This document shows positions 1,991 to 41,313 of a stretch of 48,081 bases of DNA, one piece after another. Both the position numbers and the translations under genes were made by a program. The notes under the pieces were generated by a model. That model made no database searches. It saw nothing but the letters and a program-made list of their open reading frames with translations, and was not told the DNA's origin. The stretch comes from Escherichia phage AN_ECEAS. The number at the start of each line of letters is the position of its first letter. Position 1 is the first letter of the stretch. The stretch lies in sequence record PP944860.1. One strand, written 5' to 3'.

Positions 1991-1999
1991 TGATAGAAT
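1991..1999 (+). promoter_or_regulatory. extended -10 promoter candidate TGATAGAAT
   Basis: TGnTAGAAT; predicted start lies after ATG 1998, supporting ATG 2031 as the collagen-gene start. Confidence 0.35.
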
Positions 2000-2030
2000 G
2001 GTAATCACCACAAATAGTCAGGAGATTCAA

Positions 2031-3491
2031 ATGGAGTTAGTTGAAATCGCTTCAAATAGCTGCGAAGGACTTGAGGCAAAAGCGAAGGCTTTAATGCCAT
2101 CATTTCAGCCTTATGACAGTATTATTCTGGTAGGTGACTTGCCAGTCAGGTGTTTAATGGCGTCTGGAACAGACCTAAGCATTACTGATATCAAGTTCCT
2201 AACTTTCGGTAGCCGAGCAAGGCTAATCACTGAAATTAACAAGATGATTGCTGATGGTTGGGAGATTTTCGGCGAGCCAAAGGCTGACGCAAACAGATTT
2301 GGCACAATTATGACCAAAGGCTTTCAGGGCGCTAAGGGTACGGCTGGTGTCGCTGGCCCGCAAGGTCCGCAGGGCGTTCAGGGTTTGCAGGGTCCAGAAG
2401 GCCCGCAAGGTCCAAAAGGTAATGATGGCGATGATGGTTCTCAAGGTGAGCGAGGACCACAAGGTCCGCAGGGTATCCGTGGCGAGCAAGGCGTTCAAGG
2501 TCCGCAGGGCATCCAGGGGCCAATCGGCTTAACTGGTGATACAGGTCAGCAGGGGCCAGCTGGTCCAACTGGTGCTACTGGTCCTCGTGGACCTCAAGGT
2601 GTGCAAGGTGAGGCTGGTCCTGCTGGCGCTACAGGTCTGGAATTTAAAGGCGCATGGGCTCCAGGTATCGAATACAAAGCAAACGACGCAGTGGCTTATA
2701 ACGGTTCAACATGGTTTGCTGTGACTGGAAATACAGACGAGACACCAGGGACGGGAACATCATGGCAGGTAATGGCATCACAAGGTTCTCGCGGACCAGC
2801 CGGACCAGAAGGCCCGCAAGGTGATGTTGGCCCGCAAGGTGAGCAAGGAATTCAAGGACCAATCGGAGCAACTGGACCATCTGGACCTCAGGGCGCAAAA
2901 GGTGATACAGGAGACACTGGACCAGCAGGACCAGAAGGACCACAAGGTTTAACTGGACCAGCCGGACCGCAAGGCATTCAAGGACCAGCTGGTGTTCGAG
3001 GTGCTACTGGTGCAACTGGTGTAAACGGAGCTAATGGCGCCACAGGACCGCAAGGGCCAGCTGGACCAAATGGTGATTCAGGTCTTAATTACACATATCA
3101 GAAATGGTCAAACGTAGCAAATGGCGTTGGGTATGTAACAATCCCCGGGATGCCTAATACACAAATAGGAGTTAACAGGAATTCTGCCGGAGCAATTGTG
3201 TACACTCTCTATAGTACTGGTGGAACCGTTAGGTATCTTGATTGGCGCGCTGAGATACCATCATATGATACAAATGCAATAACCACGGCTGCTGGCACGG
3301 CGACAACACCAAGCTCTGCTGGTGTAATAGCAACGATGAATACCGTTTTATATAATGGGTTAAGATCAGTCAAATTTATAATTAAGGATTGGGGCGCATC
3401 AAGGATTGCTGTAATTGAATGTTACCAACACGGAAGGGCTAACTCAGACGCGAGGCCTGTTACTATCGAGATGCGCTCATTCTCTTACTAA
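2031..3491 (+). CDS. collagen-like (Gly-X-Y) fibre protein with a CBM5/12-like insert between two triple-helix tracts
   Basis: Two long uninterrupted G-X-Y tracts (approx 2319-2636 and 2784-3083); ATG 2031 has RBS AGGAG whereas ATG 1998 has none; extended -10 upstream. Confidence 0.7.
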
Positions 3492-7177: not shown

Positions 7178-7200
7178 AACCCTCTTCGGAGGGTTTTTTA
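7178..7200 (+). terminator. rho-independent terminator after major tail gene
   Basis: CCCTC-TTCG-GAGGG stem-loop plus T6. Confidence 0.75.
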
Positions 7201-7203
7201 TTG

Positions 7204-7222
7204 ATAGCACTTTTTGTTAAAG
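7204..7222 (+). promoter_or_regulatory. dyad-motif promoter element ATAGCACTTTTTGTTAAAG
   Basis: TAGCA-N5-TGTTA; TATAGT 7242-7247; CATCGAAA start region; 27-nt leader to ATG 7281. Confidence 0.6.
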
Positions 7223-7280
7223 GCTAAGTCGCGGATTGCTGTATAGTTCATTCATCGAAAAGAAATGAGAGATTAATGAA

Positions 7281-18412: not shown

Positions 18413-18473
18413 TTTCGTATTCCTTGTGAGGTTCGTTTCGATGGAGTAATCATACATCATCTATAATCTTTGT

Positions 18474-18492
18474 CTTTAGCAATTCGTGCTAT
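18474..18492 (-). promoter_or_regulatory. dyad-motif promoter element (minus strand)
   Basis: Reverse complement of ATAGCACGAATTGCTAAAG; TATGAT and CATCGAAAC follow on minus strand before lipoprotein gene. Confidence 0.6.
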
Positions 18493-18493
18493 T

Positions 18494-18507
18494 GGTTACG
18501 CGTAACC
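18494..18507. repeat. 14-bp perfect palindrome GGTTACGCGTAACC adjacent to leftward promoter
   Basis: Self-complementary sequence 2 bp from dyad motif 18474-18492. Confidence 0.6.
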
Positions 18508-18544
18508 GATGTAACTCGATGTATACCATATGCATCCGCGGGAA

Positions 18545-18860
18545 ATCGTATACACCTATTTACGCCTCGATACGCCATAGTTACATTAAAATATCTATAT
18601 ATATCAACCCTTTACTCTTATTATTATTATTATATATATTACTGTGTATATCATGTAACTACTATTCTGTAGTGTTCCGGTTATAATTTTTATATCATGT
18701 GATTTTATACAGTATTGCGAGGCACCCATACCTATGCACCATCCGCCAAGATCGGTATACACGATATACGCACCATTTACATTGAGCTATAGCTGGGCTC
18801 AGGCAGTGAAAAACGTAACCAATAGAAATGTCTACACGTAGTTACGGATTTATACGCGTA
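18545..18860. repeat. control region A: AT-rich (ATT)n block, 10-bp palindrome AGCTATAGCT, conserved CGTAACCAAT and ACGCGTATA boxes; paralogous to region B
   Basis: Blocks 18591-18650 and 18781-18860 align by eye with 38701-38760 and 38891-38970. Confidence 0.7.
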
Positions 18861-18957
18861 TACTTGATTAATTAATCGGTGATACCAATTGGACTGTGTG
18901 TCTTGCGTGCGGCATCATTACATCATCGAAATCACGCAACCAAAGAGAGATAAAGAA

Positions 18958-20127: not shown

Positions 20128-20608
20128 TTGATAAATTTAATGATATCTTTAGATATGATGGTGAAAAGCTGTACTATAAAAACTGGGTAAACGGTAGAAG
20201 TAAGTCTCTTGGACTAGAGGCTGGTAGCAAACAGAATGGTTACTTGAAAGTTACAATTGGCGGCAGAAATTATAAAGTTCATAGAATTATATGGGAAATG
20301 GTTAATGGTGAAATACCTGATGGAATGGAATAGATCACATAAATCACGTAAAGGATGATAATAGGATTGAGAATCTAAGGCTGGTAACTCACAAGGAAAA
20401 CTCAAGAAATAGGAAAAAGAGGTCAGATAACTCTTCAGCAACACAGGGCGTTTCTCTGCATAAGATTACAAGGAAGTGGCAATCTTATTGCTCTGATAAT
20501 GATGGAAAAATTATGTACCTTGGATTATTTGAGGATATTAATGATGCTATTGATGCTAGGGTTAAGTTCGCCTCACAATGTGACTTCCATGAGAATCATG
20601 GTAAATAG
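20124..20608 (+). pseudogene. HNH homing endonuclease, frameshifted (N-terminal part in frame 0 to 20333, HNH core in -1 frame 20321-20608)
   Basis: Frame 0 ends ...IPDGME*; -1 frame continues IDHINHVKDDNRIENLRLV..., matching the intact paralogue at 36850..37347. Confidence 0.5.
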
Positions 20609-20623
20609 CAATAATTGCTAAAG
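20605..20623 (+). promoter_or_regulatory. dyad-motif promoter element, variant ATAGCAATAATTGCTAAAG
   Basis: Overlaps HNH pseudogene stop; upstream of ERF gene. Confidence 0.45.
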
Positions 20624-21369: not shown

Positions 21370-21807
21370 ATGAGTCATGTAATTACTGGTGTTATCCGTC
21401 GCGCTCCGTTCACCAAAGAAGGTCAGAATGCTAACGGAACCTGGAAAATGTATGCAGTTGATTTAAGCGAGCGCTACAAGGACAAGGATGGTCAGGTACA
21501 TTACAGTAACTATCGAGCTGTCTTCTTCGCAAAAGAATCAATGCTTGCATGGTACGATGAGGCTTTTCAGGAAGGAAAAATTGTTAGCGTAAGCTGCGAA
21601 ACTCTTGCTGTAGATGTTCGTGATAAAGATGGTAAGACGTATGTAACCATTAACATGAACAACCCGCGACTTGAGTTTAGTCAGCGCGGTGATGGTATTC
21701 AGCAACAACAGCGCCAGCAGCCACAGCAGCAACAAAGCCAACAACCACAGCAGAACCATCAGCAACCTAAGCAGCAGCAGAACTTCGACGATGACATCCC
21801 ATTCTGA
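21370..21807 (+). CDS. ssb: single-stranded DNA-binding protein
   Basis: 145 aa, Gln/Pro-rich linker and acidic C-terminal tail ...DDDIPF. Confidence 0.8.
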   Translation: MSHVITGVIRRAPFTKEGQNANGTWKMYAVDLSERYKDKDGQVHYSNYRAVFFAKESMLAWYDEAFQEGKIVSVSCETLAVDVRDKDGKTYVTINMNNPRLEFSQRGDGIQQQQRQQPQQQQSQQPQQNHQQPKQQQNFDDDIPF

Positions 21808-21839: not shown

Positions 21840-24372
21840 ATGCGAGAGAAACTCTTGAATTTGCAAATATCATGGCATCCCTTTGGTTATCAAACTGCAC
21901 AACAAAGTAATCAGCAAGACTTAACACCATACCAGTTAGTCCATCAAGGTTGATATGCAGGTTTGCAGTGCCAGATACTGAAGCCTGAGCAACTCCAAAT
22001 GTATGAACCCACTTACCGCCCTCAGTGAACACTTTCCCTAAAGATGCAGTACCAAAAATACTGATAGCACCATCTGCACCACCTTGAATCCTGTTTGCAG
22101 AGATACCCCAAACGTACCATTTGCCGGAAGTTATATTAAAGCCACCATTTATCAATTCGTACTGAGCCGCACCAGCCAATTCGTAGTATCCAGATGATTG
22201 CGAGTGTATACCCCTTGTATCAGAACCTTCACTTGCCGACCCTGTTCCACCAAAGTTGTTCCCACCAGTACCAAAAGGCCTCCTGACTAAAACAGTTCCG
22301 GAATCGGGATTAAAAACTCGACCCTTAGTAACATATCCTCTAACAGATAAGTCAGATGTACCCGTTATCTTGGCTGTCTGTGATACCAGTGACTCAACTA
22401 TAACGTTTGATGTTGAAGAGCCATTCAGGTATGCATCCTTAGCAAAAATAATACTGTTCGAATCAAGAGAGAAACTTTGATGCCCATCAGCGTTATCAAA
22501 CCTGCAACCGTAAGTAACAAGGTTTGAGTTAGACAACTCAATGTTATTAATGTAGGAGTGCTCAGCAAAGAAAACAGACGTATCAATAAGCTTCAAAACC
22601 CTTGGTAGCTCAGCACCCTCACCTACGTTAATTGCCCCACCAGTCGCTATTGCTTCAAACCATACATTTGACAAACCACAAGGCGAGGTCGGGCAATCTC
22701 CAGGTTTATTCTTTAACCTTATACCACCTCCAGCAGAGGCCTCCATTATTGAATCCCTAATCCACCATCCACCAATCCCTCCAGCACCAGGGTTAGTTGC
22801 ACTACTTGTGCTTGTCGCATCTAGCATTACTGAATATTGAGAGATTGTATCTGAGTGGTACCCGTATAAAGTGTCCGCTCCTATATGCATTTCGTCATGA
22901 GCTTTGGCTCGATACCCGTAATTCGCATTTCTAATACTTACGTTTCTGTAGGTATTTCCAATGTTGCCAGCATTTTTCCTTATACCAACATCCAGGTCAT
23001 TGAAGTAAAGCCTATCCAATACAACCCTTCCAGCATAAGGGTCATCCGGGAATTGAAAGCCGTTATTACCTTGTATTGCAGTACCTGTAAACTGCAAATC
23101 CGATAAATGCTTTTGCCTCCAGTGCGGAACCGATAGCGTTGAGGTGAGTCCGGTTTCAAAAGGTTTAACACTTATTACGGTATTATATCCAGAGCCTGAT
23201 ATGTTCCTGCCAGCAAAGGAGTAGTTATTACTCTCATAAGTTCCCGGGCTTATAACTACCGACCCGCCATCGCCAGCGGCTTCTATTGCTGAAGATATTG
23301 AGCCGCTATAGCTTGATGTGCTTTTTGAATCTGTATTTAAAATTGATGACACCTCACCCTTTGAGTAAACATCAAGGTTGGTTCTTGCCACGGACTTATC
23401 TGCAATGTCTGAAAGATTCAATGATTTTTGAAACGTCTCGGATTTTGAGTAAACATCAAGCAACCCCCTAACCCTTGACGCGCTTGATCCACCAGTTGCA
23501 GCATCACCGCCAGGCAAGCTTAGTACTTCCCTTACATAAAAAACCCTAGATCCAGTCGCACCAGAAATTGTGACATCTGCAATCCTAAAATTTGAGTTTG
23601 ACCCAGTAGACGGAGATAACCTTAATACATTAGCCGAATTAACACCCCTAGTTGCAATAACATCAATACAAATAGGAGTTGTTGAAACCGGAAACATTGA
23701 ACTAATTTCTTTTGGGGTGTTTAACATATTCCCAGGTGTGCACTGATAACGACCTCCGGAATAAAATTGCATTGTTTGCCAATCTAAAGAGGTAAGTAAT
23801 GGCGTTGTCGTGCTACCTATTCCGTGATTAGCAAAGTAAGCAACAGCCGCTGTATTTCCAGCCGCATTTATTGCTTCAACCGTCCTGTTATATGAATTTT
23901 GTGCGTTAGTGCTTGCACCAACTGCGGTCGCTGCACTTTCAGCAGCAGCAATCTGACTAGCTAACGCCTCCGCAGCTCCGGTAGTTGACTGAGTTGCCAG
24001 TTGTTCAAAACGAGGCCAATCAAAAGTATCTTGACCAATAAATTGCAGTAGACTTTCAATAGAAGTCTCTTTTGACTGGTAGTAACGCAATGTTTCCGCA
24101 ACATCCTGTGCCAACCCCTGAACAGTAATTCCATCATGAGCAAGAATTGCGTAACCAGTACCAGCGGGAACAGTTTCAGAACTTGGATTATAAACATTAA
24201 CCTGAGTATCGCTGATGATTTCAGAGATGGTGTAAATTTTCAGAGGGCTGGTTTTGAAAATGATAGTAGCACCTACACGAATCAGCGTAAGCGGCGCTTT
24301 CCATGTTGTACCGACACCAGTTACCTCTCCATTCGCGGCCAGTGACGCTGTTCCTAAGTCATAAATTGCCAT
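21838..24372 (-). CDS. tailspike/tail fibre protein with beta-helix (pectate-lyase-like) domain
   Basis: ~845 aa, Gly/Ser/Asn-rich repetitive beta-strand pattern; ATG 24372 with RBS GGAG. Confidence 0.5.
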   Translation of the reverse strand: MAIYDLGTASLAANGEVTGVGTTWKAPLTLIRVGATIIFKTSPLKIYTISEIISDTQVNVYNPSSETVPAGTGYAILAHDGITVQGLAQDVAETLRYYQSKETSIESLLQFIGQDTFDWPRFEQLATQSTTGAAEALASQIAAAESAATAVGASTNAQNSYNRTVEAINAAGNTAAVAYFANHGIGSTTTPLLTSLDWQTMQFYSGGRYQCTPGNMLNTPKEISSMFPVSTTPICIDVIATRGVNSANVLRLSPSTGSNSNFRIADVTISGATGSRVFYVREVLSLPGGDAATGGSSASRVRGLLDVYSKSETFQKSLNLSDIADKSVARTNLDVYSKGEVSSILNTDSKSTSSYSGSISSAIEAAGDGGSVVISPGTYESNNYSFAGRNISGSGYNTVISVKPFETGLTSTLSVPHWRQKHLSDLQFTGTAIQGNNGFQFPDDPYAGRVVLDRLYFNDLDVGIRKNAGNIGNTYRNVSIRNANYGYRAKAHDEMHIGADTLYGYHSDTISQYSVMLDATSTSSATNPGAGGIGGWWIRDSIMEASAGGGIRLKNKPGDCPTSPCGLSNVWFEAIATGGAINVGEGAELPRVLKLIDTSVFFAEHSYINNIELSNSNLVTYGCRFDNADGHQSFSLDSNSIIFAKDAYLNGSSTSNVIVESLVSQTAKITGTSDLSVRGYVTKGRVFNPDSGTVLVRRPFGTGGNNFGGTGSASEGSDTRGIHSQSSGYYELAGAAQYELINGGFNITSGKWYVWGISANRIQGGADGAISIFGTASLGKVFTEGGKWVHTFGVAQASVSGTANLHINLDGLTGMVLSLADYFVVQFDNQRDAMIFANSRVSLA

Positions 24373-24395
24373 TGTGTAAAGTCTCCATTTGTAAA

Positions 24396-24414
24396 ATAGC
24401 ACGAATTGCTAAAG
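24396..24414 (+). promoter_or_regulatory. dyad-motif element with no + strand gene downstream (lies in leader of the minus-strand tailspike gene)
   Basis: Perfect ATAGCACGAATTGCTAAAG; a degenerate reverse copy at about 24462-24480. Confidence 0.35.
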
Positions 24415-24459: not shown

Positions 24460-25383
24460 TTAGTCTAGCAATTCGCTTGCCTTGTATATTCGCTTTCTTA
24501 TGCCTGACTTGAAAAAATTATCATCATTTGGCATTACCACATCAAGATCGCGATCGTCAGCAACGGCGAGTAAATCAAAAGCGTGGCGAGTGCAAGCGAT
24601 GCGTAACTTGTATTTTCTAAGCGCGTAAGCAACCATTTCCATGTTGTAGCTGGAGTAGCAAACAATCACGCAGCGGTTGCCAGTAGCAAGATGAACGCGA
24701 ATACCATCAATCCAATTATCGACAAGATAAGCGTACTCATCATCTTTAAGGGAGCCAATAACAGACACTGACTGTCGAGTATAATCTTTTGCAGCATAGC
24801 TAACATCTCCTTCCTCATTGATAAACATTACATTGCACATTTCTTCTGATATGCCGTCACTATAAGCCATAAAGCACGGGACAGCATGGATTAATTCACC
24901 TGATTTTGTTCTACCAACATCAAATCCAAACTCGCTATAAATACCCTCGTATGTACTGAGTGGAGTTGATTCTACTCTTTCCGTCCTTTCCATTATCTCC
25001 AGGCATCTTTCGTGGTCAATCTGTGCTCCCATTTTGTAGAGCTGGGCTCTTGATGCTTGCTTGTTTGCCTTGTTAACAACTTCAACCGGGATGAGGTTCA
25101 GCCACTCACCTAGAGTGTCAATACATTCACTGAATGACTCACCCCGCATCTTCATGACCCAAATAATCCCATCACCTGACCCGCACTGGTTGCAGATAAT
25201 CCCACCGTCACCATCCTCACTAACCTTGTTTGTCCAGCGAGCGCGGTCAACTCCTCCACAATAAATACATGGCTTATGCTTTTTTGTCTGGAAGAATTTT
25301 GGGTCTGCGCCGCAAATGTTTATAAGCGCCTTATCCCACAGTCCGCGCATTCTTGGTAAAACTTCTTTCTTGTCGTAGTGCAT
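24460..25383 (-). CDS. putative DNA primase (zinc-ribbon plus TOPRIM-like region)
   Basis: CIYCGG...CNQCG zinc motif; acidic DxD cluster; divergent from helicase gene. Confidence 0.45.
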   Translation of the reverse strand: MHYDKKEVLPRMRGLWDKALINICGADPKFFQTKKHKPCIYCGGVDRARWTNKVSEDGDGGIICNQCGSGDGIIWVMKMRGESFSECIDTLGEWLNLIPVEVVNKANKQASRAQLYKMGAQIDHERCLEIMERTERVESTPLSTYEGIYSEFGFDVGRTKSGELIHAVPCFMAYSDGISEEMCNVMFINEEGDVSYAAKDYTRQSVSVIGSLKDDEYAYLVDNWIDGIRVHLATGNRCVIVCYSSYNMEMVAYALRKYKLRIACTRHAFDLLAVADDRDLDVVMPNDDNFFKSGIRKRIYKASELLD

Positions 25384-25441: not shown

Positions 25442-25915
25442 TTACTCTTTAGCTTTTCGTGCTGCTTCGTTAGCGGCCTTAATCTTGCGCCATGATCGAC
25501 ACTCTGGCTTGGTGGCTAGCTCTGCTTCAGTAACTACGCGAAGCATATGACGCTTCTTACATCGAAGTGTTAGCGGCTTACCGTTTCCGTCGAATTGCAG
25601 GTCTGGTCGGCAGAACGTAGCTCGAAATCCTTCCTTATTTCTCTTATACGCATTGTGAGCTTTCTGCGCTCCTCGAGCCGAAATCATCCCGCGATCAAAC
25701 CATTGCTCTACAGTCTGGTGAGATACGTTTAACTGCTTTGCGATGTTCGCCTTTGTTCCATAGAAATCAAGAACCATCTCCAGGCGAGCACGTAGCCCAG
25801 CCTTTACCTCATCTTTCAATACGTAGTAGCCTGACGGTCGTTTGCGTTGCTTCTTGTCTTGTGTGCGTACCGTTCCGTTATTGCCGTTAATAGTTCGTTT
25901 GTCAATTTCACACAT
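25442..25915 (-). CDS. HTH DNA-binding protein (candidate transcription regulator)
   Basis: Basic protein with HTH-like segment IAKQLNVSHQTVEQWF; its RBS region abuts dyad motif 25928-25946. Confidence 0.4.
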   Translation of the reverse strand: MCEIDKRTINGNNGTVRTQDKKQRKRPSGYYVLKDEVKAGLRARLEMVLDFYGTKANIAKQLNVSHQTVEQWFDRGMISARGAQKAHNAYKRNKEGFRATFCRPDLQFDGNGKPLTLRCKKRHMLRVVTEAELATKPECRSWRKIKAANEAARKAKE

Positions 25916-25927
25916 CTCATTACCTCA

Positions 25928-25946
25928 ATAGCACTTTTTGTTAAAC
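25928..25946 (+). promoter_or_regulatory. dyad-motif promoter element ATAGCACTTTTTGTTAAAC
   Basis: Upstream of helicase gene; TATTAT-like hexamer ~20 bp downstream; 12 bp from start of divergent HTH gene. Confidence 0.55.
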
Positions 25947-26011
25947 AATAGGTTCGATAATTGATATTATACAGCAATGCAACGAACTAACAAACTGTCA
26001 GGATACTTAAA

Positions 26012-29000
26012 ATGCTTCCAGTAGAGCGCTTAGTGGCAAACTTTGATCAAGAGAAAATCAAACAGATTCAGAAAGATTACCAGTTTGGAGACATAACTCC
26101 TTACGAATTCCAGTGTGTAACATTTGACGCAATTGGTAAGGCTATTGGTAAGTACGAGGCTCCATTCATCGCAGACCTGTCTGTATCTGCTGGTAAAACA
26201 ATAATTCTTGCCATGATTGGGAAAAGAATGGAGCAACTTGGACTTCCTTATATGGTACTGTCTCGCCAGTCAGAGATTATCAGCCAGAACGCAGAGGAAC
26301 TCCGTAACTTCGGTATCCGTAATAGCGTCTATTGCGCTGGACTTAACGTTAAATCAGTTTACTACCCAACCATAGTGGCTAGTGAGGGTACAGCTGCCAA
26401 TGGCCTGTTTAAGGGGCTTGGTGACTATGTTCCTGCTGTTATCGCGATAGATGAGTGCTTAACTGGAGACACGATGATAACCACCGATTCAGGGATGATG
26501 AGGATTGATAGCGAAGACCTTATCAATCATAAAATAAAATGCATAAACGAAAGCACTGGTGATTACTTCTATCATAAGCCAAAAAGAGTTTTTACTAATG
26601 GTGTAAGACATGTATCATCAATTAAATTAGAAAGCGGAGAGGAAATAAAATGCACGAGTACACACAAACTTTATTCGAACGGCTGCTGGGTAGGAGCGGG
26701 AAAACTTCGTATTGGGATGAATCTGTCGCTAGACGGCTCGCAGGACAAATTTACGAAAAAGCTCCTGCGTGCAAGTGTGGCTGTGGTGAAAAAGTTATGC
26801 CGCATTCAAGCAAGGGGTTAGGCGTACTTCTTAAGAACCCTTTCGATTTCTATTTGGATTACAGAACGGGGCATCATAATTCAACCGTCAACCCATCAAT
26901 GGAGGTTGATGACTTTTTACATCAAAACATTCTTGCGGCAATGGCTGGTGATGGTTGCTTGATTAAAAATACAGAAAAAGGAACGCATAGGCTATCTTGG
27001 AATATGGGAAATAAGGAGCACGCACTAAGCAAGGTTGAAAGGTTTGCAAAACTAAACCCTAGATACAGGGAGAAGAAAAACCCTGGATTTGGCGACAACT
27101 GGTTTTGCGTATCAACATCATGTACGAAAGTTCTGGATTCATATGCTGATAAGTACGGAAATTCTAAGGATGGTTACGATATTGGAAAGATATGCAGAGA
27201 GCTTGATCCAGTTGGTTGGGCTGCTTACTTTGGTGATGATGGTCATTGCACTGTAAGCTCAGGGAAGAGGGTTGTAGAAATCCACACCGAATCATTTAGC
27301 AGGCGTGAAGTTCAATCAGTAGTTGATGCGCTAATAGCATTTATTGCTAATGACGGAGTTAATGTTAGAAGCTATATTGGCGGCAAGAAAAAGAGAGAGC
27401 TTTACTCAGTATCAATAACAACGAGGTCGGCACAAGATGAGTTTTTTAAGAGAATTAGTAAGCACATGGAAAATGGCGTGGAATACAAAATCAAGCAAAA
27501 TTAAAGACATCTCACCCATTGGCAAGGAACTTGTTTGGGATATAGAGATGCCTGAGCACCATAATTTCATTGCTGACGGGGTCGTGGCACATAATTGCCA
27601 CATGGTGGACCATATGGATATCGTAGAAGCTGAAGAGAATGAGGAAACATTCGAGCAGATGAGCACGAAGAAGGGTGAGATGGTCTTTAAGGATGGTGTG
27701 AATACCGGGCTTCTTGGCACTGGTCGCGCGCAATACACGTTAATCATTACCGAAATGAAGCGTCGATGCAAGGAGAAGTACGGTCGCGAACTTCGTATCT
27801 TTGGGTTAACTGGTAGCCCGTACCGTAACAACGACCACATTGTAGTTAGTAACCCAAATGTCCGTGGATTCTGGCGCAAAACTGTAATGCAAGTGCCAAC
27901 CAGCTACCTTGTTGACTTGGGGTTCGTTGTTCCTACTGTCTACGGTGAAGTTGGTGATTTGGGCTACGACCTTAGTGAGTTCACTCCTGATGGAAGTGAT
28001 GGGGTTAAGGACTTCAGCAAGAAAGAAATGGATGCGATGGCTGCAAAGATTCACGAAAACCAAACGATGACACAAAAGATAATGGGATTTGCTGCTAGGT
28101 TTATGGAAACAAGGAATGCTGCATTGGTAACTTGCGCTGGCAAACAGCATTGCGAGGAGGCGGCAGCCGCACTTCCAGAAGGTGTTACTTGGGCGATAGT
28201 TACCAACTCCACTGGTGATAAGAAGCGTAGAGAGATACTTGAGAAGGCAGCCAGCGGAGAATATAAGTTCATATTTCAGATTGGTTGCCTCACAACTGGC
28301 GTAAACTGCCCCCCGTGGGATACAAGCATTATCCTGAGGAAGGTTGGTAGCATTACTCTACTCATTCAGTTGCTTGGTCGTGGTATGCGTATCCTTAAGA
28401 AGAAGCACAAAGAAGCTGGAATGGTAAAAGATGACCATGTTGTTCTTGATTTTGCCGGGACGCTTGACGATATGGCAGAACTCTACTTCGACCCAATTAT
28501 AGAAGAGGTTCAGGACCAGAAGTTTAAGTCATCCAGGAAAGGGGGTGATGAACCAAGAATTTGCCCAGCATGTTCTTATGAGAATTCTCCTTTCGCACGG
28601 CGCTGTAATAATGTGATTGACGGTAAACGATGCGAGCATTTTTTTCAGTTCCGTCTTTGCGAAGATATTGAGGACCCGCAGACGAAAGTTATCGTTAAGA
28701 AAGGTTGCGGAGAGAAAAATGACGTTGCAGCAAAGAACTGCCGCTGCTGCGGAGAGATGCTGATAGACCCAAATGCAAAGCTATCTGGAAAAATGTATCG
28801 GAAAGGGGACTGGTTGAGAGTTTATGACTTCAAGATTGGGTTGACAAAAAACCAGTCAGGGATCGTTGCTTCATATGAGGTAATGGCTCATAGTGGAGAT
28901 AAGTTCCGAGCTTATGAAACATTCTTCCCGGAGTCAGACCATCGTGTTTGTTCTGTCAAATGGAAGGCGTTTTGCTCAACTCACATCGAGAACAGGACTG

Positions 29001-29146
29001 AGGCTTTTAGGATTGGCAGATTGCGTAATGCTAAAATGATTATGACAAATGCACATCTTTTCCGTGCGCCGCTAAGGATTACGCACCGCAAGAATCAGAA
29101 GTCGCAAGATATTATCGCCAACAAATCATTTACGATGGAGGATTGA
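26012..29146 (+). CDS. SF2 DNA helicase interrupted by an intein in motif II (exteins 26012-26455 and 27596-29146)
   Basis: Walker A SVSAGKT; DE|CH box restored on splicing; motif VI QLLGRGMR; C-terminal zinc ribbons; reading frame is not continuous through the intein. Confidence 0.7.
26456..27595 (+). mobile_element. intein with LAGLIDADG homing-endonuclease domain (endonuclease domain in a different frame)
   Basis: N-terminal CLTGDT and block B TSTH; C-terminal ...HNFIADGVVAHN followed by Cys; two LAGLIDADG-like motifs ILAAMAGDGCL and WAAYFGDDGHC in ORF 26650..27504. Confidence 0.75.
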
Positions 29147-29147: not shown

Positions 29148-29567
29148 ATGAAAATCACAGACAAAGGTGATTACCTCGAGTTCTATGGCGGACCGGTGAA
29201 GTCATGCCCAAAGGAAGACGATGAACAAATCTTCTGCTCTGATTGGGTGAAATACAACTATCCGCAGATTGTTTACTGGCACACGATTAACGAAAATAAA
29301 AAGAGCATTGGTCAAGCAATAAAAGACCAAGCCAAGGGGCTTCTCAAAGGTGTGTCAGACTGCTTATTTCTGATACCTGAGTCATTGCGTGGCGGTTATC
29401 CATTTGGCGCCATAGAGTTAAAGAGGGCTGGTAAAACGCAAGCAAGCCCAGTTAGCAATGAGCAAAAGTCATTCCTAAAAAGCGTAAGGGAATCAGGCGG
29501 TTTCGCAGCGGTGGCTTATGGAAGAGAGGGTTTTCTTGCGGCATTCGCAGAGATGATAAGAAAATAG
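29148..29567 (+). CDS. putative VRR-NUC-type nuclease
   Basis: 139 aa with ...GAIELKRAG... motif; coupled to helicase stop. Confidence 0.4.
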   Translation: MKITDKGDYLEFYGGPVKSCPKEDDEQIFCSDWVKYNYPQIVYWHTINENKKSIGQAIKDQAKGLLKGVSDCLFLIPESLRGGYPFGAIELKRAGKTQASPVSNEQKSFLKSVRESGGFAAVAYGREGFLAAFAEMIRK

Positions 29568-29582
29568 CACGAATTGCTAAAG
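29564..29582 (+). promoter_or_regulatory. dyad-motif promoter element ATAGCACGAATTGCTAAAG
   Basis: Overlaps stop of 29148..29567; TATTAT and CATCGAAACG follow; upstream of 29646. Confidence 0.6.
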
Positions 29583-29645: not shown

Positions 29646-29834
29646 ATGAAAGACATTATTACTAAAGAATCCCAAAGCTACTACGCCTCATACTATGAGA
29701 CAGTTAATGGTTTTAAATTTATTGATATAGAGCAAGGTGGAAACGCCGTTACGCTAACTAGCGAAAAAGATTTAAATGACATGATTTCGTTCTTAGAAAA
29801 AGTGAAAGAGCATTTAAATAGCACGAATTGCTAA
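29646..29834 (+). CDS. hypothetical protein
   Basis: Own dyad-motif promoter; RBS AGAGAGA; C-terminus NSTNC encoded by the next promoter motif. Confidence 0.45.
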   Translation: MKDIITKESQSYYASYYETVNGFKFIDIEQGGNAVTLTSEKDLNDMISFLEKVKEHLNSTNC

Positions 29835-29836
29835 AG
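29818..29836 (+). promoter_or_regulatory. dyad-motif promoter element ATAGCACGAATTGCTAAAG
   Basis: TATAGT 29856-29861, CATCGAAAC with predicted +1 near 29868; motif also encodes NSTNC* of upstream ORF. Confidence 0.6.
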
Positions 29837-31165: not shown

Positions 31166-32299
31166 ATGGCAGCATCAAAGATTACAAATGAACAGCTTAT
31201 CGAAGAGCTGAAAAGCGGCCTGACTAACAAGGCAATTGCAGAGAAGTACGGCATGAATATTCGCAACGTTGAGCTTCGTCGCAGTAAGTTGGCTAAGAGT
31301 GGTATTGGGCATGGTAATGAAGGTATCAAGAAGCTAGTTCCTGACGGTTATTTAGTCAAGGGCACCTCAACAATGATTGATGCGGAAGGGAATGAGAAGC
31401 TGCGTTGGGTTAAGACTTCGATTGATGCTGAGAAGCAAGAAGAGATGCTTCAGCAGATTGTTAAGGCTCTTACAGACGAGGTTCCTCGCGAGACTCCAAA
31501 GCCACTCAGTGAATCAAGCTATGAAGATACATTGAGTCTCTACCCTGTATTTGATATGCACATTGGCGCAATGGCTCACCATGCAGAGTGTGGGGAGAAC
31601 TACAGTACAGAAATTGCAGAGCGAGTGCTTAACCAATACTTTGATTATGCAGTTGCTAAGGCCCCGAATTCATCAAAAGCCGTATTACTGATTGGTGGAG
31701 ACTTCCTTCACTCGGATGGAATGGAAGCTGTAACTCCAACCAGCAAGCACGTACTTGATCAAGATAGCCGTTATCATAAACTTGTCTACGTAGCTGTTCG
31801 TGCAACTCGCCGCGCCGTCAGTAAGATGCTTGACAAGCATAAAGAGGTTGAGGTTCAGATTATACCAGGCAACCACGACCTTTCTGGGATGATTTGGCTT
31901 CGAGCTGCAATGGCTGCCTTCTACATGGATGAGCCTCGTGTAAATGTTGATGCCTCACCAGCCGCTCTTCACGTGACGGAGTTTGGTAAAACATTGTTGG
32001 GTTACTGCCATGGTCATGAATTGCGAAAGCCTGACACTCGTCTTTCAACTCTTGCGCGCGACCATCGCAAAGCATTTGGTAATGCTGAATACGTTTATAC
32101 ACATAGTGGCCATTATCATCATCAGACGGTTACTGAGGGTAATCTTGGAATTGATGAGTCACACGGTCAGTTGGGTGCTAAAGATGCGTACAGCGCAAAC
32201 GGAGGGTATCGCTCTTATCGTCAGGCCTCAGTAATTATCTATAGCTCAGAGTACGGTGAAGTTGGTCGATTCACTTGCCGACCTGAAATGTTTAAGTAA
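31166..32299 (+). CDS. HTH domain fused to calcineurin-like metallophosphoesterase
   Basis: N-terminal LTNKAIAEKYGMNIRNVELRRSKL; phosphoesterase motifs DMH, GGDFLHSD, GNHD, GHE, GHYHH. Confidence 0.55.
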   Translation: MAASKITNEQLIEELKSGLTNKAIAEKYGMNIRNVELRRSKLAKSGIGHGNEGIKKLVPDGYLVKGTSTMIDAEGNEKLRWVKTSIDAEKQEEMLQQIVKALTDEVPRETPKPLSESSYEDTLSLYPVFDMHIGAMAHHAECGENYSTEIAERVLNQYFDYAVAKAPNSSKAVLLIGGDFLHSDGMEAVTPTSKHVLDQDSRYHKLVYVAVRATRRAVSKMLDKHKEVEVQIIPGNHDLSGMIWLRAAMAAFYMDEPRVNVDASPAALHVTEFGKTLLGYCHGHELRKPDTRLSTLARDHRKAFGNAEYVYTHSGHYHHQTVTEGNLGIDESHGQLGAKDAYSANGGYRSYRQASVIIYSSEYGEVGRFTCRPEMFK

Positions 32300-32317
32300 T
32301 AGCACTTTTTGTTAATA
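32299..32317 (+). promoter_or_regulatory. dyad-motif promoter element ATAGCACTTTTTGTTAATA
   Basis: Between metallophosphoesterase and HAD phosphatase genes. Confidence 0.5.
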
Positions 32318-32372
32318 AAGCCTCAAAGGATTGAGGCAAAATGAATAAACGATAACGATATGAGGAGTTGTA

Positions 32373-32847: not shown

Positions 32848-33402
32848 ATGAAAAAGTTAATCATCCTTAATGCACCCCCTGGTGCTGGAAAAGATACAGT
32901 TGCAGATATCATTGTTAATCTTGGAATTTGCAAGGATAAGGTTTCATTCAAGTCACCAATGTTTAATGTTGCAAAAGGAATACTATCAAGTGATGAGTTT
33001 GATGGATTTATTAATAATTACGATGACCGAGAGTACAAAGAATCACCACACGAATTTCTTGGTGGAATGACTGTTCGTGAATTTATGATTTGGATTAGCG
33101 AATCAGTTATGAAGCCAGTCTTTGGTGATGATGTTTTCGGCAAAAGGCTCACACAATCACTTGGTGATGGATGCTACATTTGTTCAGACGGTGGATTTGC
33201 GAGTGAAATCGAACCACTGATTGGCAACGGCGTTGAGGTTACATTGATTAGGCTTCACAGGCCTGGTTATACTTTCGAAGGAGATAGTAGGTCATACCTT
33301 AGTTGCGTCTGCGCAAGAGAGATTGATGTTGATGTTATTGAAGGTGATATTAAAAGAACTACAGAAAAAGTAATTAGTGCAATCAATAGCACGAATTGCT
33401 AA
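32848..33402 (+). CDS. P-loop kinase, probably deoxynucleoside monophosphate kinase
   Basis: N-terminal KKLIILNAPPGAGKDTVADII resembling T4 gp1-type dNMP kinase P-loop; RBS GGAG. Confidence 0.5.
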   Translation: MKKLIILNAPPGAGKDTVADIIVNLGICKDKVSFKSPMFNVAKGILSSDEFDGFINNYDDREYKESPHEFLGGMTVREFMIWISESVMKPVFGDDVFGKRLTQSLGDGCYICSDGGFASEIEPLIGNGVEVTLIRLHRPGYTFEGDSRSYLSCVCAREIDVDVIEGDIKRTTEKVISAINSTNC

Positions 33403-33404
33403 AC
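33386..33404 (+). promoter_or_regulatory. dyad-motif promoter element ATAGCACGAATTGCTAAAC
   Basis: AATAAT hexamer and CATCGAAAAC follow; upstream of 33461. Confidence 0.6.
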
Positions 33405-35195: not shown

Positions 35196-36779
35196 TTACC
35201 CCAGCAATCGTGGATTAATGTAAATTTTATCACCAATCAGGCATGTGTAGTTTTTCTCATCAAGCATAGGAATCAAGTGGTCCTTAATGCGAGTCATAAT
35301 TCCAGCCTGAGCTTCAAAAGGTTTAACCTTGCGTGCAGCCTCATACAACGAGCGAACACCAACAACACCTTTACCATTCTTGCCCTGCTTAATCAGGATA
35401 TCAACCAGCTTGTTCATCTCGGCATTGTCACCAGCATGACCAGCAGCACTAGCTGATGACAAATACGTCTTGCTTAGCTCGTTGAAAATCATAACTGCCT
35501 CCTGCATTGTCTCCAGTTCAATCTCTCTGGACTTCTGCGGGCTAGAGCCAGTTTGTGAGGACCAGTTACGAATAACGTGAAGTACGGAAGCGATGCGGAT
35601 TGCTTGCTTATCAAACTTACCAAGAGCACCGCGCAACATTGTGTGAGAATACTTGCCACCATCACCAAGATGAGGCTCCATCTCCTGACGTGCTCGGTTA
35701 AGGTAACGCATTGATGATGCGCTTACTGTTAGCTTAACCTCTACTTCATTCATAATCTCATGAACAAGACGGAAGTAGTCCGCTTTCAGGCCGCCATCAA
35801 TAGCCTCGTATGTTGAATCACCATTAGCATCAACAAATACGCGGTCGCCAAGGAATGACTTTTCGCGCACCAGAAGGAAACGCTCAGATACACCAATACC
35901 ACGCGCACCAGCATTCATAATGGCATTGATTGTTTCATCCTGAGCAATTACGGAGATGCATCCCATAGCCACAAAGCTCATGTTATTTTCTGCGTTCGCA
36001 CGGGCAATTGACACATTACCTGCATCCCATGCTTTCAGCACGAGCTCGCTGTTCGTTTTCTTAGAGCCATTACCATATGTCATACCCAACAATGAGTTGA
36101 CGCTAGTTGCCTCATCCGAGATTACCGAGAAGTTACCCTGGCGGTTGTTGATTCGCGCAAGGCCTTCTGGTGTAGTATCGGAGACAGGGAATACGATATC
36201 GCACAGCTTCTCAAGTTTTTCCTCCAGGTCTTCTTTATCTTCAAACAATGAAGCCATTTCAGAAGGTGATTTCTCCTGCTTCATCTCTTTAGCCAGGGCG
36301 GACAGTTTAGCCATAATCTTTTTTCGATCACGTTTACGTACTTCATTCAACCGCTCAGTCTCAGCAATCATTGGCGCGATTGCCAGTGAGTTAATGGCTG
36401 ACTTACCAGTTGAAGGAGGCTGGCTCGTCACGACATAAAGAGATGTCGGCTGCTGGGTTCCGTGATACTCAACAGTGAAGCGCCCAAGCATTGCAGCGGA
36501 CACGCAGCCCAGAAAGTGCATATAAGCAGATGACTCAGGGAACTGAACTGAGCGAGCGATGTTGGCTGACAGCTTGCCAACAATATCAATGTCATTACCG
36601 AGTGAGATTACTGGATATTTGTCATTCCCAGCATCAATCTCGACAGGTGCTTTCCAGAATGATTGAGACTGGCGATAACCATTTGCATTAATTGCTACGC
36701 GAAGTGGTGGAAGGTTGTCTGTAGCTGCAATTGCCATAACTTGTTCAACAGATAGTTTATCTTCGTTGAAATCAAACAT
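35196..36779 (-). CDS. P-loop NTPase of unknown function
   Basis: 527 aa with Walker-A-like PPSTGKSA; own dyad-motif promoter. Confidence 0.45.
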   Translation of the reverse strand: MFDFNEDKLSVEQVMAIAATDNLPPLRVAINANGYRQSQSFWKAPVEIDAGNDKYPVISLGNDIDIVGKLSANIARSVQFPESSAYMHFLGCVSAAMLGRFTVEYHGTQQPTSLYVVTSQPPSTGKSAINSLAIAPMIAETERLNEVRKRDRKKIMAKLSALAKEMKQEKSPSEMASLFEDKEDLEEKLEKLCDIVFPVSDTTPEGLARINNRQGNFSVISDEATSVNSLLGMTYGNGSKKTNSELVLKAWDAGNVSIARANAENNMSFVAMGCISVIAQDETINAIMNAGARGIGVSERFLLVREKSFLGDRVFVDANGDSTYEAIDGGLKADYFRLVHEIMNEVEVKLTVSASSMRYLNRARQEMEPHLGDGGKYSHTMLRGALGKFDKQAIRIASVLHVIRNWSSQTGSSPQKSREIELETMQEAVMIFNELSKTYLSSASAAGHAGDNAEMNKLVDILIKQGKNGKGVVGVRSLYEAARKVKPFEAQAGIMTRIKDHLIPMLDEKNYTCLIGDKIYINPRLLG

Positions 36780-37780: not shown

Positions 37781-37794
37781 AGCCCCGAAGGGCT
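37781..37794 (-). terminator. terminator-like hairpin embedded in a promoter spacer (minus strand)
   Basis: AGCCC-CGAA-GGGCT stem; T4 on minus strand; sits between dyad motif and -10 hexamer. Confidence 0.4.
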
Positions 37795-37811
37795 TTAGCA
37801 ATTCGTGCTAT
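37793..37811 (-). promoter_or_regulatory. dyad-motif promoter element (minus strand) with terminator hairpin in its spacer
   Basis: Minus strand reads motif, GC hairpin plus T-run, TATAGT, CATCGAAATG, RBS, ATG 37730. Confidence 0.6.
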
Positions 37812-37956
37812 TTCGTGCCTTCTCAATCGCCTTCAGCATAATCTCGTGAGACTCAAGCAAGTCCTCGTTGAACCAGTCTCCGCAAGGCCACCCCTTCCCA
37901 CTGTAAGCGGCAACAACGCTCAAGTCGTAATAGTTAATGTCAGATGGTAGAAGCAT
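37795..37956 (-). CDS. hypothetical small protein (53 aa)
   Basis: Below track cutoff; RBS AAGGTGA; ends ...NSTNC* inside the downstream promoter motif. Confidence 0.3.
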   Translation of the reverse strand: MLLPSDINYYDLSVVAAYSGKGWPCGDWFNEDLLESHEIMLKAIEKARNSTNC

Positions 37957-38409: not shown

Positions 38410-38428
38410 CATTAGCAAAAAGTGCTAT
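38410..38428 (-). promoter_or_regulatory. dyad-motif promoter element (minus strand), ATAGCACTTTTTGCTAATG
   Basis: Upstream of 38171..38356; iteron block immediately upstream. Confidence 0.55.
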
Positions 38429-38443
38429 TCGTTGGATTTATCT

Positions 38444-38544
38444 ATTGTTGCAGCTATTGCAATGATTATCATGATTATTGCACATATAGCAATATTGCAT
38501 GGAATGCAATGATGTTTTTGATTGTTGCAGAATTTGCAATGATT
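38444..38544. repeat. iteron-like array: ATTGTTGCAG-N3-TTGCAATGATT twice (38444-38467, 38521-38544) plus palindrome GCAATATTGC and ATGCAATGATG between
   Basis: Direct 24-bp repeats ~77 bp apart and TGCAAT-containing dyads. Confidence 0.6.
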
Positions 38545-38975: not shown

Positions 38976-39028
38976 CATGATACCATGGTTTCATCTTAAC
39001 GAAGAGCAACCAATCAGGAGTAACGAAT

Positions 39029-41303: not shown

Positions 41304-41313
41304 GGTTTATAAA

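Follow-up and report, generated by a model that had tools for sequence, protein, structure and literature searches.

In Staphylococcus aureus pathogenicity islands (SaPIs), replication origins have an AT-rich region flanked on either side by hexamer repeats that run in opposite directions, and these repeats are read by the C-terminal winged helix of the Rep helicase, while the primase is a separate protein (PMC9371898). SPP1, a virulent Bacillus siphovirus that packages headfuls from a pac site, possesses two similar origins kilobases apart, oriL and oriR, both of which are composed of direct repeats together with an unwinding element that is AT-rich, rank among the strongest AT islands of the genome and are bound by one initiator. 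The second SPP1 copy has been proposed to stall forks, leading to concatemer synthesis through a 5'-3' exonuclease, an annealase and SSB (PMC6316719, PMC3485210). The satellite phage P4 also has two cis elements, ori and crr, with a common short repeat, TGTTCACC (P4 record).

The window analysed here is the whole 48,081-nucleotide stretch of Escherichia phage AN_ECEAS (PP944860.1, hereafter ES), a relative of T1. T1 is a classical T phage whose family is a common laboratory and industrial contaminant, and to our knowledge no T1 replication origin has been described. Origin-type repeats were sought genome-wide in the 2024 re-annotation of TLS, and none were reported (PMC11447400). Our literature search on a T1-family origin, IHF dependence, transcript maps and DUF3987 proteins with iterons found nothing on the two elements presented below, termed A and B.

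Two paralogous control regions, at 18545-18860 and 38665-38975, had been proposed from the letters alone, and alignment bears out their kinship: A and B are collinear, with a best score of 87.9 bits. By blastn, A 112-190 matches B 335-415 (82 nt, 86.6% identity, E 1e-21); another block, of 40 nt, matches with 85% identity (E 3e-7). In the shuffle controls (300 per setting), the maximum ranged from 30.7 to 38.1 bits, even under the strictest scheme, in which bases were permuted only inside 10-nt blocks so that local composition was kept; AT-richness alone is therefore no explanation for the match. The proposed bounds, however, start about 50 bp too far right on their left side, and the corrected units, of about 365 bp each, lie in the same orientation, 20,120 bp apart.

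18494-18862, unstranded: element A, entire paralogous unit, 369 bp, from alignments
38615-38974, unstranded: element B, entire paralogous unit, 360 bp, from alignments

Element A is located between the leftward promoter of a lipoprotein gene and the rightward promoter of the exoVIII-Erf-SSB operon, and B in a large non-coding gap that also contains the genome-end (pac) area. Two similar units of repeats plus unwinding element, at distant sites of one genome, are also found in T1, Rtp, IME542, JulesPiccard and TLS.

All motifs named in the original prediction are present: TATCTATATATATCAACC with (ATT)n, the palindromes AGCTATAGCT and CCAGCTATAGCTGG, AAAA(A/G)CGTAACCAAT (18809-18823 in A, 38919-38934 in B), the ACGCGTATA boxes, with five of the five genomic ACGCGTA sites inside A or B, and TTGAT(T/A)...GATACCA. 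Both elements follow a common plan, in which an AT-rich core holding an (ATT)5-6 tract as well as a perfect IHF consensus is flanked by WTACRY hexamer arrays, oppositely oriented and facing the core, accompanied by conserved TCCGCGGAAATC-like boxes and bounded by palindromic repeat pairs at the edges. The parts of A are as follows.

18494-18507, unstranded: left edge, head-to-head repeat pair, GGTTACGCGTAACC, a perfect 14-bp palindrome
18535-18547, plus strand: box L, TCCGCGGGAAATC, with a repeat unit immediately after it
18548-18586, plus strand: four repeat units in 10-bp phase adjoining the core on the left, GTATACAC, ATTTACGC, CGATACGC, AGTTACAT
18587-18642, unstranded: core, candidate DNA unwinding element, (TA)n, with (ATT)5 at 18618-18633
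18602-18614, plus strand: IHF consensus TATCAACCCTTTA (WATCAANNNNTTR) with an AT-rich 5' flank
18643-18659, minus strand: two reversed repeat units adjoining the core on the right, TGTGTATAT, CATGTAAC, which read ATATACAC, AGTTACAT on the minus strand (inverted repeat)
18742-18782, plus strand: box R (TCCGCCAAGATCG) and three repeat units, GTATACAC, ATATACGC, ATTTACAT (direct repeats)
18785-18794, unstranded: palindrome AGCTATAGCT, with two genomic occurrences, one per element
18851-18862, unstranded: right edge, head-to-head repeat pair, TATACGCGTATA, a perfect 12-bp palindrome

The corresponding parts of B are these.

38615-38647, unstranded: left edge, inverted counterpart of 38941-38974
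38657-38668, plus strand: box L, TTCCGAAGAATC, from the alignment
38669-38706, plus strand: four repeat units in 10-11-bp phase adjoining the core on the left, ATACAC, CCACGC, TTACGC, TTACAT
38707-38761, unstranded: core, candidate DNA unwinding element, from the alignment, with (ATT)6 at 38739-38755
38722-38734, plus strand: IHF consensus TATCAACCTTTTA, by consensus match
38762-38779, minus strand: reversed repeat units adjoining the core on the right, from the WTACRY scan
38863-38894, plus strand: box R (TCCGCGTAAAATC) and repeat units, TCTTACAC, AATTACAC
38894-38907, unstranded: palindrome CCAGCTATAGCTGG, from the sequence
38941-38974, unstranded: right edge, sharing sequence with the rightward promoter (-35 hexamer and spacer)

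The edges of B form two arm pairs, each 88% complementary. Sixteen WTACRY copies occur in A (P 4e-12) and 13 in B (P 4e-9), where 1.4 are expected in each, and the next densest window of the genome holds five; since the motif was defined after seeing A, only the enrichment in B is an independent test. To the left of each core lie four plus-strand units, and to the right two minus-strand units. Among all 80-bp windows of the genome, the B core ranks as the least stable (z 5.2) and the A core comes second (z 4.8). The genome contains four IHF consensus sites, two of which occupy the same relative position in A and B (0.07 expected).

The element plan is kept at both sites in T1, Rtp, IME542 and TLS, with repeat sequences that are specific to each subfamily. 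TLS carries GTGAACA(C/G) instead of WTACRY, and four of its eight genomic TGTTCAC copies fall within A and B (0.19 expected), while T1 has GATTAACAC three times and AAATTACGCC twice. The junction of AAATCG and repeat at box L of A is common to T1 (GGGAAATCGATTAACAC) and TLS (GCGAAAAATCGTGAACAC), and the right-side repeat units of A are invariant in 18 of 18 aligned loci. As in ES, no 80-bp window is less stable than the two AT cores in the genomes of T1, Rtp, IME542 and TLS; among Drexlerviridae, the A-site core ranks as the least stable window in 42 of 42 loci. The T1 and TLS cores lack the strict IHF consensus, and the B-copy site is one base off consensus (TAACAA) in Rtp, ESCO41 and IME253. 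Two distant phages, L109 and L110, have only replication genes in common with ES, and analogous repeat/AT-core/repeat elements head their replication operon. A single-protein search of viral contigs with the neighbouring DUF7174 protein returned five loci.

Both units have inverted-repeat edges, and in A-type loci an ORF remains open through the left half. On these grounds, A and B might be a duplicated small mobile element, non-autonomous and with inverted ends, or genes for a small protein or a non-coding RNA; we regard this as very improbable, since synteny holds at both sites throughout Braunvirinae, Tunavirinae and Tempevirinae. Mobile or satellite copies were sought in 5,426 E. coli genomes and 72,556 plasmids, with no match. 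The two ORFs (18486-18686, 38564-38803) had been suspected of being non-coding, which agrees with a codon-position test, where variable columns are evenly spread over the three positions (16/66, 17/65 and 18/66), and with the lack of a conserved ORF in B. RNAalifold gave -3.67 kcal/mol over 518 columns of 18 A- and B-type sequences, with no conserved structure. At gathering thresholds, Rfam recognized a single tRNA in the whole window, and E-value searches of both regions gave no credible match. A and B are neither coding sequences, nor structured RNAs, nor copies of a mobile element.

ES encodes a candidate initiator and a primase.

35196-36779, minus strand: DUF3987 helicase, candidate initiator, MCM-like AAA+ fold with a C-terminal winged helix at about residues 451-521
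24460-25383, minus strand: primase, homologous to the P4 alpha primase domain (BLASTP E 2e-12 against alpha residues 31-263; tblastn)

The helicase was modelled with high confidence, and its predicted structure resembles MCM and ends in a winged helix, which places the protein, as modelled, in the same class as the SaPI Rep initiator-helicases; the similarity to Rep is detected at the fold level only. PDB sequence searches and NCBIfam were uninformative for annotating this protein, and the helicases identified in the phage are the DUF3987/MCM-like and a SNF2/DEAD protein. Within Braunvirinae, whose repeats are identical, the helicase is 91-96% conserved, the highest value among the proteins tested. 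Between phages with different repeat types, the winged-helix part is its most divergent part, at 45-57% compared with 63-75% for the AAA+ part. This pattern of conservation lends indirect support to a helicase that would recognize the repeats.

ES shares with the SaPIs a layout in which short, oppositely directed repeats flank a central AT-rich region, and it too encodes an AAA+ helicase of the MCM clade, predicted to have a winged helix at its C terminus. In contrast to the SaPIs, which combine a self-loading Rep and a Pri primase with a single origin immediately downstream of rep, ES has two elements: B heads the helicase operon, 1.8 kb away from the helicase gene, and A is about 16 kb from that gene. 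Beyond the SaPI design, the ES elements have an IHF consensus and a trinucleotide tract, along with additional boxes and palindromes.

With SPP1, ES shares the gene set for an exonuclease, an annealase and SSB, here located next to A. The SPP1 initiator gp38, loader gp39 and DnaB-type gp40, by contrast, are unrelated to the MCM-like helicase, as judged from their descriptions; oriL lies inside gene 38, and no sequence similarity to SPP1 was found. The likeness to P4 extends to the primase and, in TLS-type relatives only, to the elements, whose GTGAACA repeat has the same 7-nt core, whereas the ES repeats read WTACRY rather than TGTTCACC. Only the primase domain of P4 alpha was matched, with no homologue found for its helicase or origin-binding domain, and comparing P4 ori and crr with the T1-family elements yielded marginal short matches, longer alignments being not significant. 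Iteron origins with an IHF site, such as those of pSC101 and R6K gamma, have repeat arrays adjoining an AT-rich region that contains the site, and they employ Rep-family initiators plus host DnaA and DnaB-DnaC. Unlike these, neither A nor B contains a DnaA box (TTWTNCACA).

Repeats facing an extremely unstable core are an origin design, and we judge it somewhat more probable than an even chance that the replication origin of the phage is present twice, as A and B, or that the pair comprises an origin and a partner site resembling one. Duplicated early promoter/operator regions and replication origins had both been put forward originally; the repeat arrays, the unstable core, the IHF consensus, the helicase and the primase lend better support to the latter, as do the conservation of the design across the family with repeats particular to each subfamily and the analogous elements of L109 and L110; the promoter/operator alternative fits less well. 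The anatomy of the sequence, its conservation and the predicted helicase fold are what the analysis shows; binding partners, origin firing and roles for the two copies we infer along the following lines. The winged-helix domain of the MCM-like helicase would bind the WTACRY arrays flanking the core, host IHF would bend the core at its consensus site, and this least stable duplex of the genome would melt, probably assisted by negative supercoiling from outward transcription at the flanking promoters. The helicase would then load itself, the P4-alpha-type primase would prime, and host polymerase III would elongate. By analogy with oriL and oriR of SPP1, the second copy may also fire; alternatively, bound by the initiator, it could stall forks and bring about a switch to recombination-dependent concatemer synthesis, a role that would fit the position of A directly upstream of the exonuclease-annealase-SSB operon.

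A, B and the winged-helix helicase supply coordinates and a candidate initiator for a T1-family origin. If this origin reading is correct, the self-loading helicase origins of the SaPI/SCCmec type would extend to a large family of virulent enterobacterial phages, and dual origins tied to a switch from theta to concatemeric replication would have a second example after SPP1. Such elements would also be useful components in phage engineering and in detecting or inhibiting T1-like contaminants by way of their replication.

Several observations count against an origin. The roughly 100 nt around the A core are nearly invariant among 10 A-type loci, though the phages differ by about 20% elsewhere; such constraint exceeds that of a usual unwinding element and could reflect promoters or another sequence-specific reader. 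The cores also contain promoter-like hexamers, and the strict IHF consensus is not universal. Moreover, A and B are not next to the initiator gene, unlike the origins of SaPIs, P4 and lambda.

The transcriptional setting bears on what else the elements might be, and its landmarks are listed here.

18474-18493, minus strand: 21-nt family repeat (ATAGCACGAATTGCTAAAG) of the leftward promoter at A, abutting element A
18889-18918, plus strand: rightward sigma-70 promoter of A, TTGGAC, 18-nt spacer, CATCAT, outside the shared unit
38410-38429, minus strand: 21-nt repeat, by repeat family, at the leftward promoter of the operon containing the MCM-like helicase
38959-38986, plus strand: rightward sigma-70 promoter of B, TTGATA, 13-nt spacer by coordinates, extended -10 TGATACCAT, from the promoter scan

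Both regions had been placed at junctions of divergent transcription, and in ES, Rtp and T1 the elements do lie between outward-facing promoters; such a junction is not required, however, as the A element of TLS lies between two rightward genes. The leftward start assumed at 18412 is plausible, because a promoter-like site at 18449-18476 falls inside the longer ORF. Only in B does the motif TTGAT(T/A)...GATACCA, noted before the first rightward gene, constitute a good extended -10 sigma-70 promoter (TTGATA...TGATACCAT); the rightward promoter that is conserved at A is found 25 nt to the right of the motif. The position of this promoter is conserved at A-type loci, where the -10 reads TATAGT, and the -10 of the B promoter is variable among phages, yet always TAnnAT. 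Two public records place promoters inside the AT core, both as in-silico predictions only. GC skew, considered as an origin indicator, tracks transcription direction only and is uninformative on origins.

A and B might instead be early-transcription control complexes, in which a phage regulator on the repeats, helped by an IHF bend, loops the DNA and activates, represses or insulates early promoters, much as at lambda OL/OR or at the early operator of phage Mu, which has an IHF site. The outward-facing promoters of ES, Rtp and T1 and the promoter-like hexamers of the core would suit this explanation, as would the right edge of B, which overlaps the -35 hexamer and spacer of its promoter. The rightward promoters of both elements have canonical -35 hexamers and do not carry the 21-nt repeat of most other promoters, which fits an early class, and a 157-aa helix-turn-helix regulator is 89% conserved within Braunvirinae. 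Nevertheless, the recognisable sigma-70 promoters lie outside the shared unit except at that one edge of B; at A-type loci, the homologous edge does not cover the promoter and lies about 25-60 nt upstream of it. An overlap of -35 and -10 in both copies, characteristic of lambda-type operators, was not found. The A element of TLS has no divergent junction to control, and in L109 and L110 the analogous elements travel with the replication module rather than with a shared regulator. A better candidate for a regulator site is the 21-nt dyad repeat, described for TLS (PMC11447400) and common to all subfamilies. Taken together, early-transcription control, the chief alternative to an origin, appears unlikely, though it deserves consideration.

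Element B also has a neighbour that A lacks, a repeat block conserved in all B-type loci.

38444-38545, unstranded: TGCAAT/ATTGCA repeat block, candidate pac region, at B only, listed as context, outside the shared unit

At this block lies the first or last base of the public records of T1, Rtp and OzMSK, and for FP, Rao1 and SU57 the record boundary is no more than about 50 bp off; these record ends, at 38419-38592 next to B, are a proxy for true termini only. IHF sites are known in lambda cos and P1 pac. The elements could be packaging accessory sites comparable to lambda cosB, at which small-terminase repeats and an IHF bend would aid terminase assembly near pac. B lies 70-190 bp from the record ends of these six phages, and the authors of the SU57 study placed a terminal repeat and an unidentified pac site in the same non-coding region (PMC7718038). 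A, on the other hand, is 20 kb away and devoid of the block that marks the genome-end region, and a second pac-like site in mid-genome would initiate aberrant headful series. The analogous element of L110 has no terminase gene nearby. A further objection, that TerS shows only 65-66% identity between phages whose cores are identical, is weak, since the TGCAAT block, the presumed pac, is conserved too. We consider a packaging function improbable.

Returning to replication, the two elements may form an asymmetric pair throughout Drexlerviridae, with the trinucleotide tract serving in addition as a track for the initiator, a joint reading that we put forward tentatively and with a low expectation that it holds as a whole. 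One element may fire as the origin of theta replication. The other, loaded with the MCM-like initiator beside the exonuclease-annealase-SSB operon, may act as a programmed fork barrier or cis partner, which may switch the phage to recombination-dependent concatemers for headful packaging. DnaA-trios in bacterial origins are read as a single-strand track by an AAA+ initiator, and by analogy the conserved trinucleotide tract of the core may be read in the same manner. Such tracts recur in the distant phages, as (CAA)12 and (AAT)6 in L109 and L110, compared with (ATT)5-6 in ES.

Regions A and B, the paralogous non-coding units of the window, align collinearly; identity is 86.6% across the 82 nt of the main block (E 1e-21) and 85% across the 40 nt of a second one (E 3e-7). 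Their best score of 87.9 bits lies far above the maxima of 30.7-38.1 bits reached by shuffles, including base shuffling confined to 10-nt blocks, which argues for homology rather than common AT-richness. The original prediction of paralogy is therefore upheld, and every motif it listed was found in the two sequences, while the units proved larger than the roughly 300 bp it gave them. Across both regions, the window is 100% identical to Escherichia phage ES (OR466728.1; Drexlerviridae, subfamily Braunvirinae; a T1/Rtp-like phage), whose name is used here. An exact 75-bp terminal duplication (1-75 = 48007-48081) is read as a circular assembly overlap, leaving a unique genome of 48,006 bp. The elements and their main parts are as follows.

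18494-18862: element A, with a leftward lipoprotein gene (Pfam Phage_lipoprotein) on its left and, on its right, a rightward operon that encodes a 64-aa protein, exonuclease VIII, Erf and SSB
38615-38974: element B, within a large non-coding gap separating leftward from rightward small-gene blocks
A, left edge: head-to-head repeat pair GGTTACGCGTAACC
A, right edge: matching repeat pair TATACGCGTATA
A, left of the core: box TCCGCGGGAAATC and, immediately after it, four repeat units set in 10-bp phase, in order GTATACAC, ATTTACGC, CGATACGC and AGTTACAT

Both units follow the same plan of edge pairs, box with repeats, AT-rich core, inverted repeats, box and palindrome, and all five genomic ACGCGTA sites fall within A or B. 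The 55-nt AT-rich core contains an (ATT)5-6 tract, (TA)n and a perfect IHF consensus (TATCAACCCTTTA, fitting WATCAANNNNTTR) with an AT-rich 5' flank; two of the four occurrences of this consensus in the genome lie at equal relative positions in A and B. Two oppositely oriented repeat units immediately adjoin the core on its right, and about 80 nt beyond them come a second box with three units, the palindrome AGCTATAGCT and more units. The repeat core WTACRY, a motif defined after inspection of A and derived from it, numbers 16 copies in A and 13 in B, where 1.4 are expected (P 4e-9), while the next densest 375-bp window of the genome holds 5. By nearest-neighbour energies, the cores of A and B are the genome's two least stable windows at 50, 80 and 120 bp (z 4.5-5.2).

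Several other identities were rejected. The ORF at 18486-18686 had been judged non-coding together with its counterpart in B, and this judgement holds: variable columns are spread evenly over its codon positions (16/66, 17/65 and 18/66 in ten A-type loci, the counterparts of A in relatives), and B-type loci contain no conserved ORF. A structured RNA is disfavored by an RNAalifold energy of -3.67 kcal/mol over 518 columns from 18 loci, and Rfam gave nothing credible for either element. A mobile element or host-derived sequence is contradicted by the synteny of both sites in ES, Rtp, IME542, JulesPiccard, T1 and TLS; complete E. coli genomes and plasmids yielded no match to A or B.

Relatives of element A were found in 134 phage records. 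The A and B sites also supply the two least stable 80-bp windows of the T1, Rtp, IME542 and TLS genomes, and 42 of 42 Drexlerviridae loci, collected via the exonuclease VIII gene, have their least stable window a short distance upstream of it. The repeat sequence differs by subfamily while the architecture stays. T1 carries GATTAACAC three times and AAATTACGCC twice, whereas TLS-type elements pair GTGAACA(C/G) on one flank with TGTTC(A/C)C on the opposite one, with four of the eight TGTTCAC copies of the TLS genome in A and B (0.19 expected). An AAATCG-plus-repeat junction is common to the ES, T1 and TLS types. Constancy of plan combined with short repeats that change between lineages is the pattern that a site co-evolving with a sequence-specific binding protein would leave. 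The trinucleotide tract of the presumed unwinding region is recurrent, not universal, being (ATT)5-6 in ES, (ATT)3 in TLS and missing from the B copy of T1.

Additionally, two distant phages, L109 and L110, encode helicases 35-38% identical to that of ES. Over about 20 kb compared in each, the genes in common with ES are those of replication only: the MCM-like helicase, the SNF2/DEAD helicase, and primase or SSB. Each replication operon is headed by a non-coding gap, roughly 550 bp long (L109 9180-9780; L110 2050-2640), that holds an AT-rich core flanked by repeats of both orientations. CTTACAY, with the same repeat core as ES, has 10 of its 14 copies in the L109 locus inside the gap (0.11 expected); in L110, all five copies of CACGCCCA lie in its gap, and the cores carry the microsatellites (CAA)12 and (AAT)6, respectively. 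The element type therefore travels with the replication module.

The most likely reading is that A and B both serve as replication origins, or that one does and the other is an origin-like partner; two genes may supply the proteins involved.

35196-36779, minus strand: "DNA helicase" (Pfam DUF3987), candidate reader of the repeats
24460-25383, minus strand: primase, homologous to the P4 alpha primase domain (E 2e-12); no homologue of other P4 alpha parts was found

The helicase fold is a prediction, from a confident AlphaFold2 model (pLDDT 89, pTM 0.88) whose C-terminal domain is predicted to run helix, strand, helix, helix, strand, strand. No other protein compared is as conserved among ES, Rtp and IME542, whose repeats are identical: the helicase shows 91-96% identity, against 65-66% for TerS, 72-73% for primase, 73-78% for TerL and 89% for the regulator. 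Across repeat types, the helicase diverges most in its winged-helix part, at 45-57% identity, with 63-75% in the AAA+ part. This apparent tracking of repeat type is suggestive, not decisive, because phylogeny alone yields part of it. For binding and firing we infer the following order: the winged helix of the helicase would bind the repeat arrays flanking the core on both sides, the core would be bent by IHF and melt, and the helicase would load itself, with priming by the primase and elongation by host polymerase.

Staphylococcus aureus pathogenicity islands (SaPI) offer a parallel, with a layout like that found in ES: their Rep proteins are self-loading initiator-helicases with the primase encoded by a separate gene, and their C-terminal winged helix reads oppositely directed penta- or hexanucleotide repeats flanking an AT-rich region (PMC9371898). 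A precedent for two copies is SPP1, a virulent pac-type siphovirus with oriL and oriR, which are alike in organisation and bound by one initiator; at oriR, the bound initiator is proposed to stall the fork and bring about the concatemer switch via exonuclease, annealase and SSB (PMC6316719, PMC3485210). ES is likewise a virulent pac-type siphovirus with two copies, and element A lies directly upstream of the exonuclease-annealase-SSB operon. The ori and crr of P4, two cis elements sharing repeats, form a second precedent for such a pair (P4 record). P4 is linked to the T1 family only by the primase domain and, in TLS-type phages, by a repeat core of 7 nt; longer alignments of P4 ori/crr with T1-family elements were not significant. 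The literature yielded no description of the A and B elements or of any T1-family origin, and the TLS re-annotation reports that origin-type repeats are absent throughout that genome (PMC11447400). The kind of element that A and B would represent is already known; their practical value is that they open the unmapped T1 origin to direct experiment.

Neither the promoters nor pac form part of the unit shared by A and B.

18889-18918: rightward promoter of A, beyond the unit (TTGGAC, 18-nt spacer, CATCAT)
38959-38986: rightward promoter of B (TTGATA...TGATACCAT), its -10 variable between phages yet TAnnAT in all
18474-18493, 38410-38429, minus strand: copies of the family's 21-nt repeat, in the two leftward promoters
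37793-37812, minus strand: further 21-nt repeat copy
20602-20623, 24393-24414, 29561-29582, 29815-29836, 33383-33404, 40160-40181, 40836-40857, 42182-42203, 46532-46553: further copies
7196-7223, 25920-25947, 32291-32318, 44445-44469: variant copies
38444-38545, with flanks 38430-38607: TGCAAT/ATTGCA repeat block, then ACTACCATACAAGTTGATTTTGATTCTTGCTGAGCC, at B only

The elements might instead form an early-transcription control complex in which a regulator and IHF make a loop, an unlikely reading though one with some weight. In most phages they lie between outward-facing promoters, B extends over a -35 hexamer at its right edge, and about 100 nt of core are near-invariant, more than an unwinding element usually needs. 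However, the promoters stand outside the shared unit, the placement of the unit relative to its promoter is not alike in A and B, and the 21-nt dyad repeat is a better candidate site for the regulator. The divergent junctions stressed by the original prediction recur in most phages, yet TLS breaks the rule: its A element has rightward genes on both sides, which makes divergent transcription inessential. Origin and control functions can coexist in one element; an origin built from a promoter and an unwinding element, as in T4 and T7, would unite the two.

The 21-nt dyad repeat aaATAGCACgaaTTGCTAAAg, with at least 14 occurrences in the window, was already described for TLS (PMC11447400). A TATnAT-like -10 hexamer and a CATCGAAAC leader usually follow about 22 nt downstream of it. 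The canonical rightward promoters beside A and B both lack it, which suggests two promoter classes. A phage activator may act at the repeat; one candidate is the helix-turn-helix regulator of 157 aa (25442-25915, minus strand).

An accessory role in packaging fits the position of B but not that of A, and is very improbable. The TGCAAT block, nearly invariant across all B-type loci, is a better pac candidate since it matches record ends, themselves a mere proxy for pac: the records of T1, Rtp and OzMSK start or end inside it, and those of FP, Rao1 and SU57 within about 50 bp. The SU57 authors placed the terminal repeat and the presumed pac site in the non-coding gap of B (PMC7718038). With its flanks, 38444-38545 is thus a candidate pac recognition and cleavage region. 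The terminase genes lie further on.

43929-44453: small terminase, P22 gp3 type
44521-44997: HNH endonuclease ORF, between the two terminase genes
44976-46538: large terminase

The gene at 21370-21807 is "terminase small subunit" in the ES record but SSB by PHROGs. The first gene right of element A seems over-extended upstream in the public records of Rtp (28260-28658), IME542 (40987-41334) and JulesPiccard (22631-22978), running into the element's conserved non-coding right half; the ATG common to all A-type loci corresponds to window position 18958 and a protein of about 64 aa. The SNF2/DEAD helicase gene, 1995 nt and uninterrupted in Rtp, is interrupted in the window (26012-29146) by an intein that carries a LAGLIDADG endonuclease, with the gene split into three ORFs in different frames, reflecting either a decaying intein or assembly frameshift errors.

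26012-26821: intein N-terminal splicing region
26650-27504: LAGLIDADG
27437-29146: intein C-terminal splicing region and Helicase_C

The window has a single tRNA gene (43316-43388) and 37 GATC sites in 48 kb, against about 190 expected by chance. In contrast to this GATC-poor sequence, T1 and TLS encode Dam, and the TLS genome has 254 GATC sites (PMC11447400). Among the head genes, a 497-aa ORF (1998-3491) combines long stretches of collagen-like G-X-Y repeats (Pfam Collagen, E 7e-33) with a CBM_5_12 match too weak to pass Pfam's cut-off, and is the source of the window's largest direct-repeat families.
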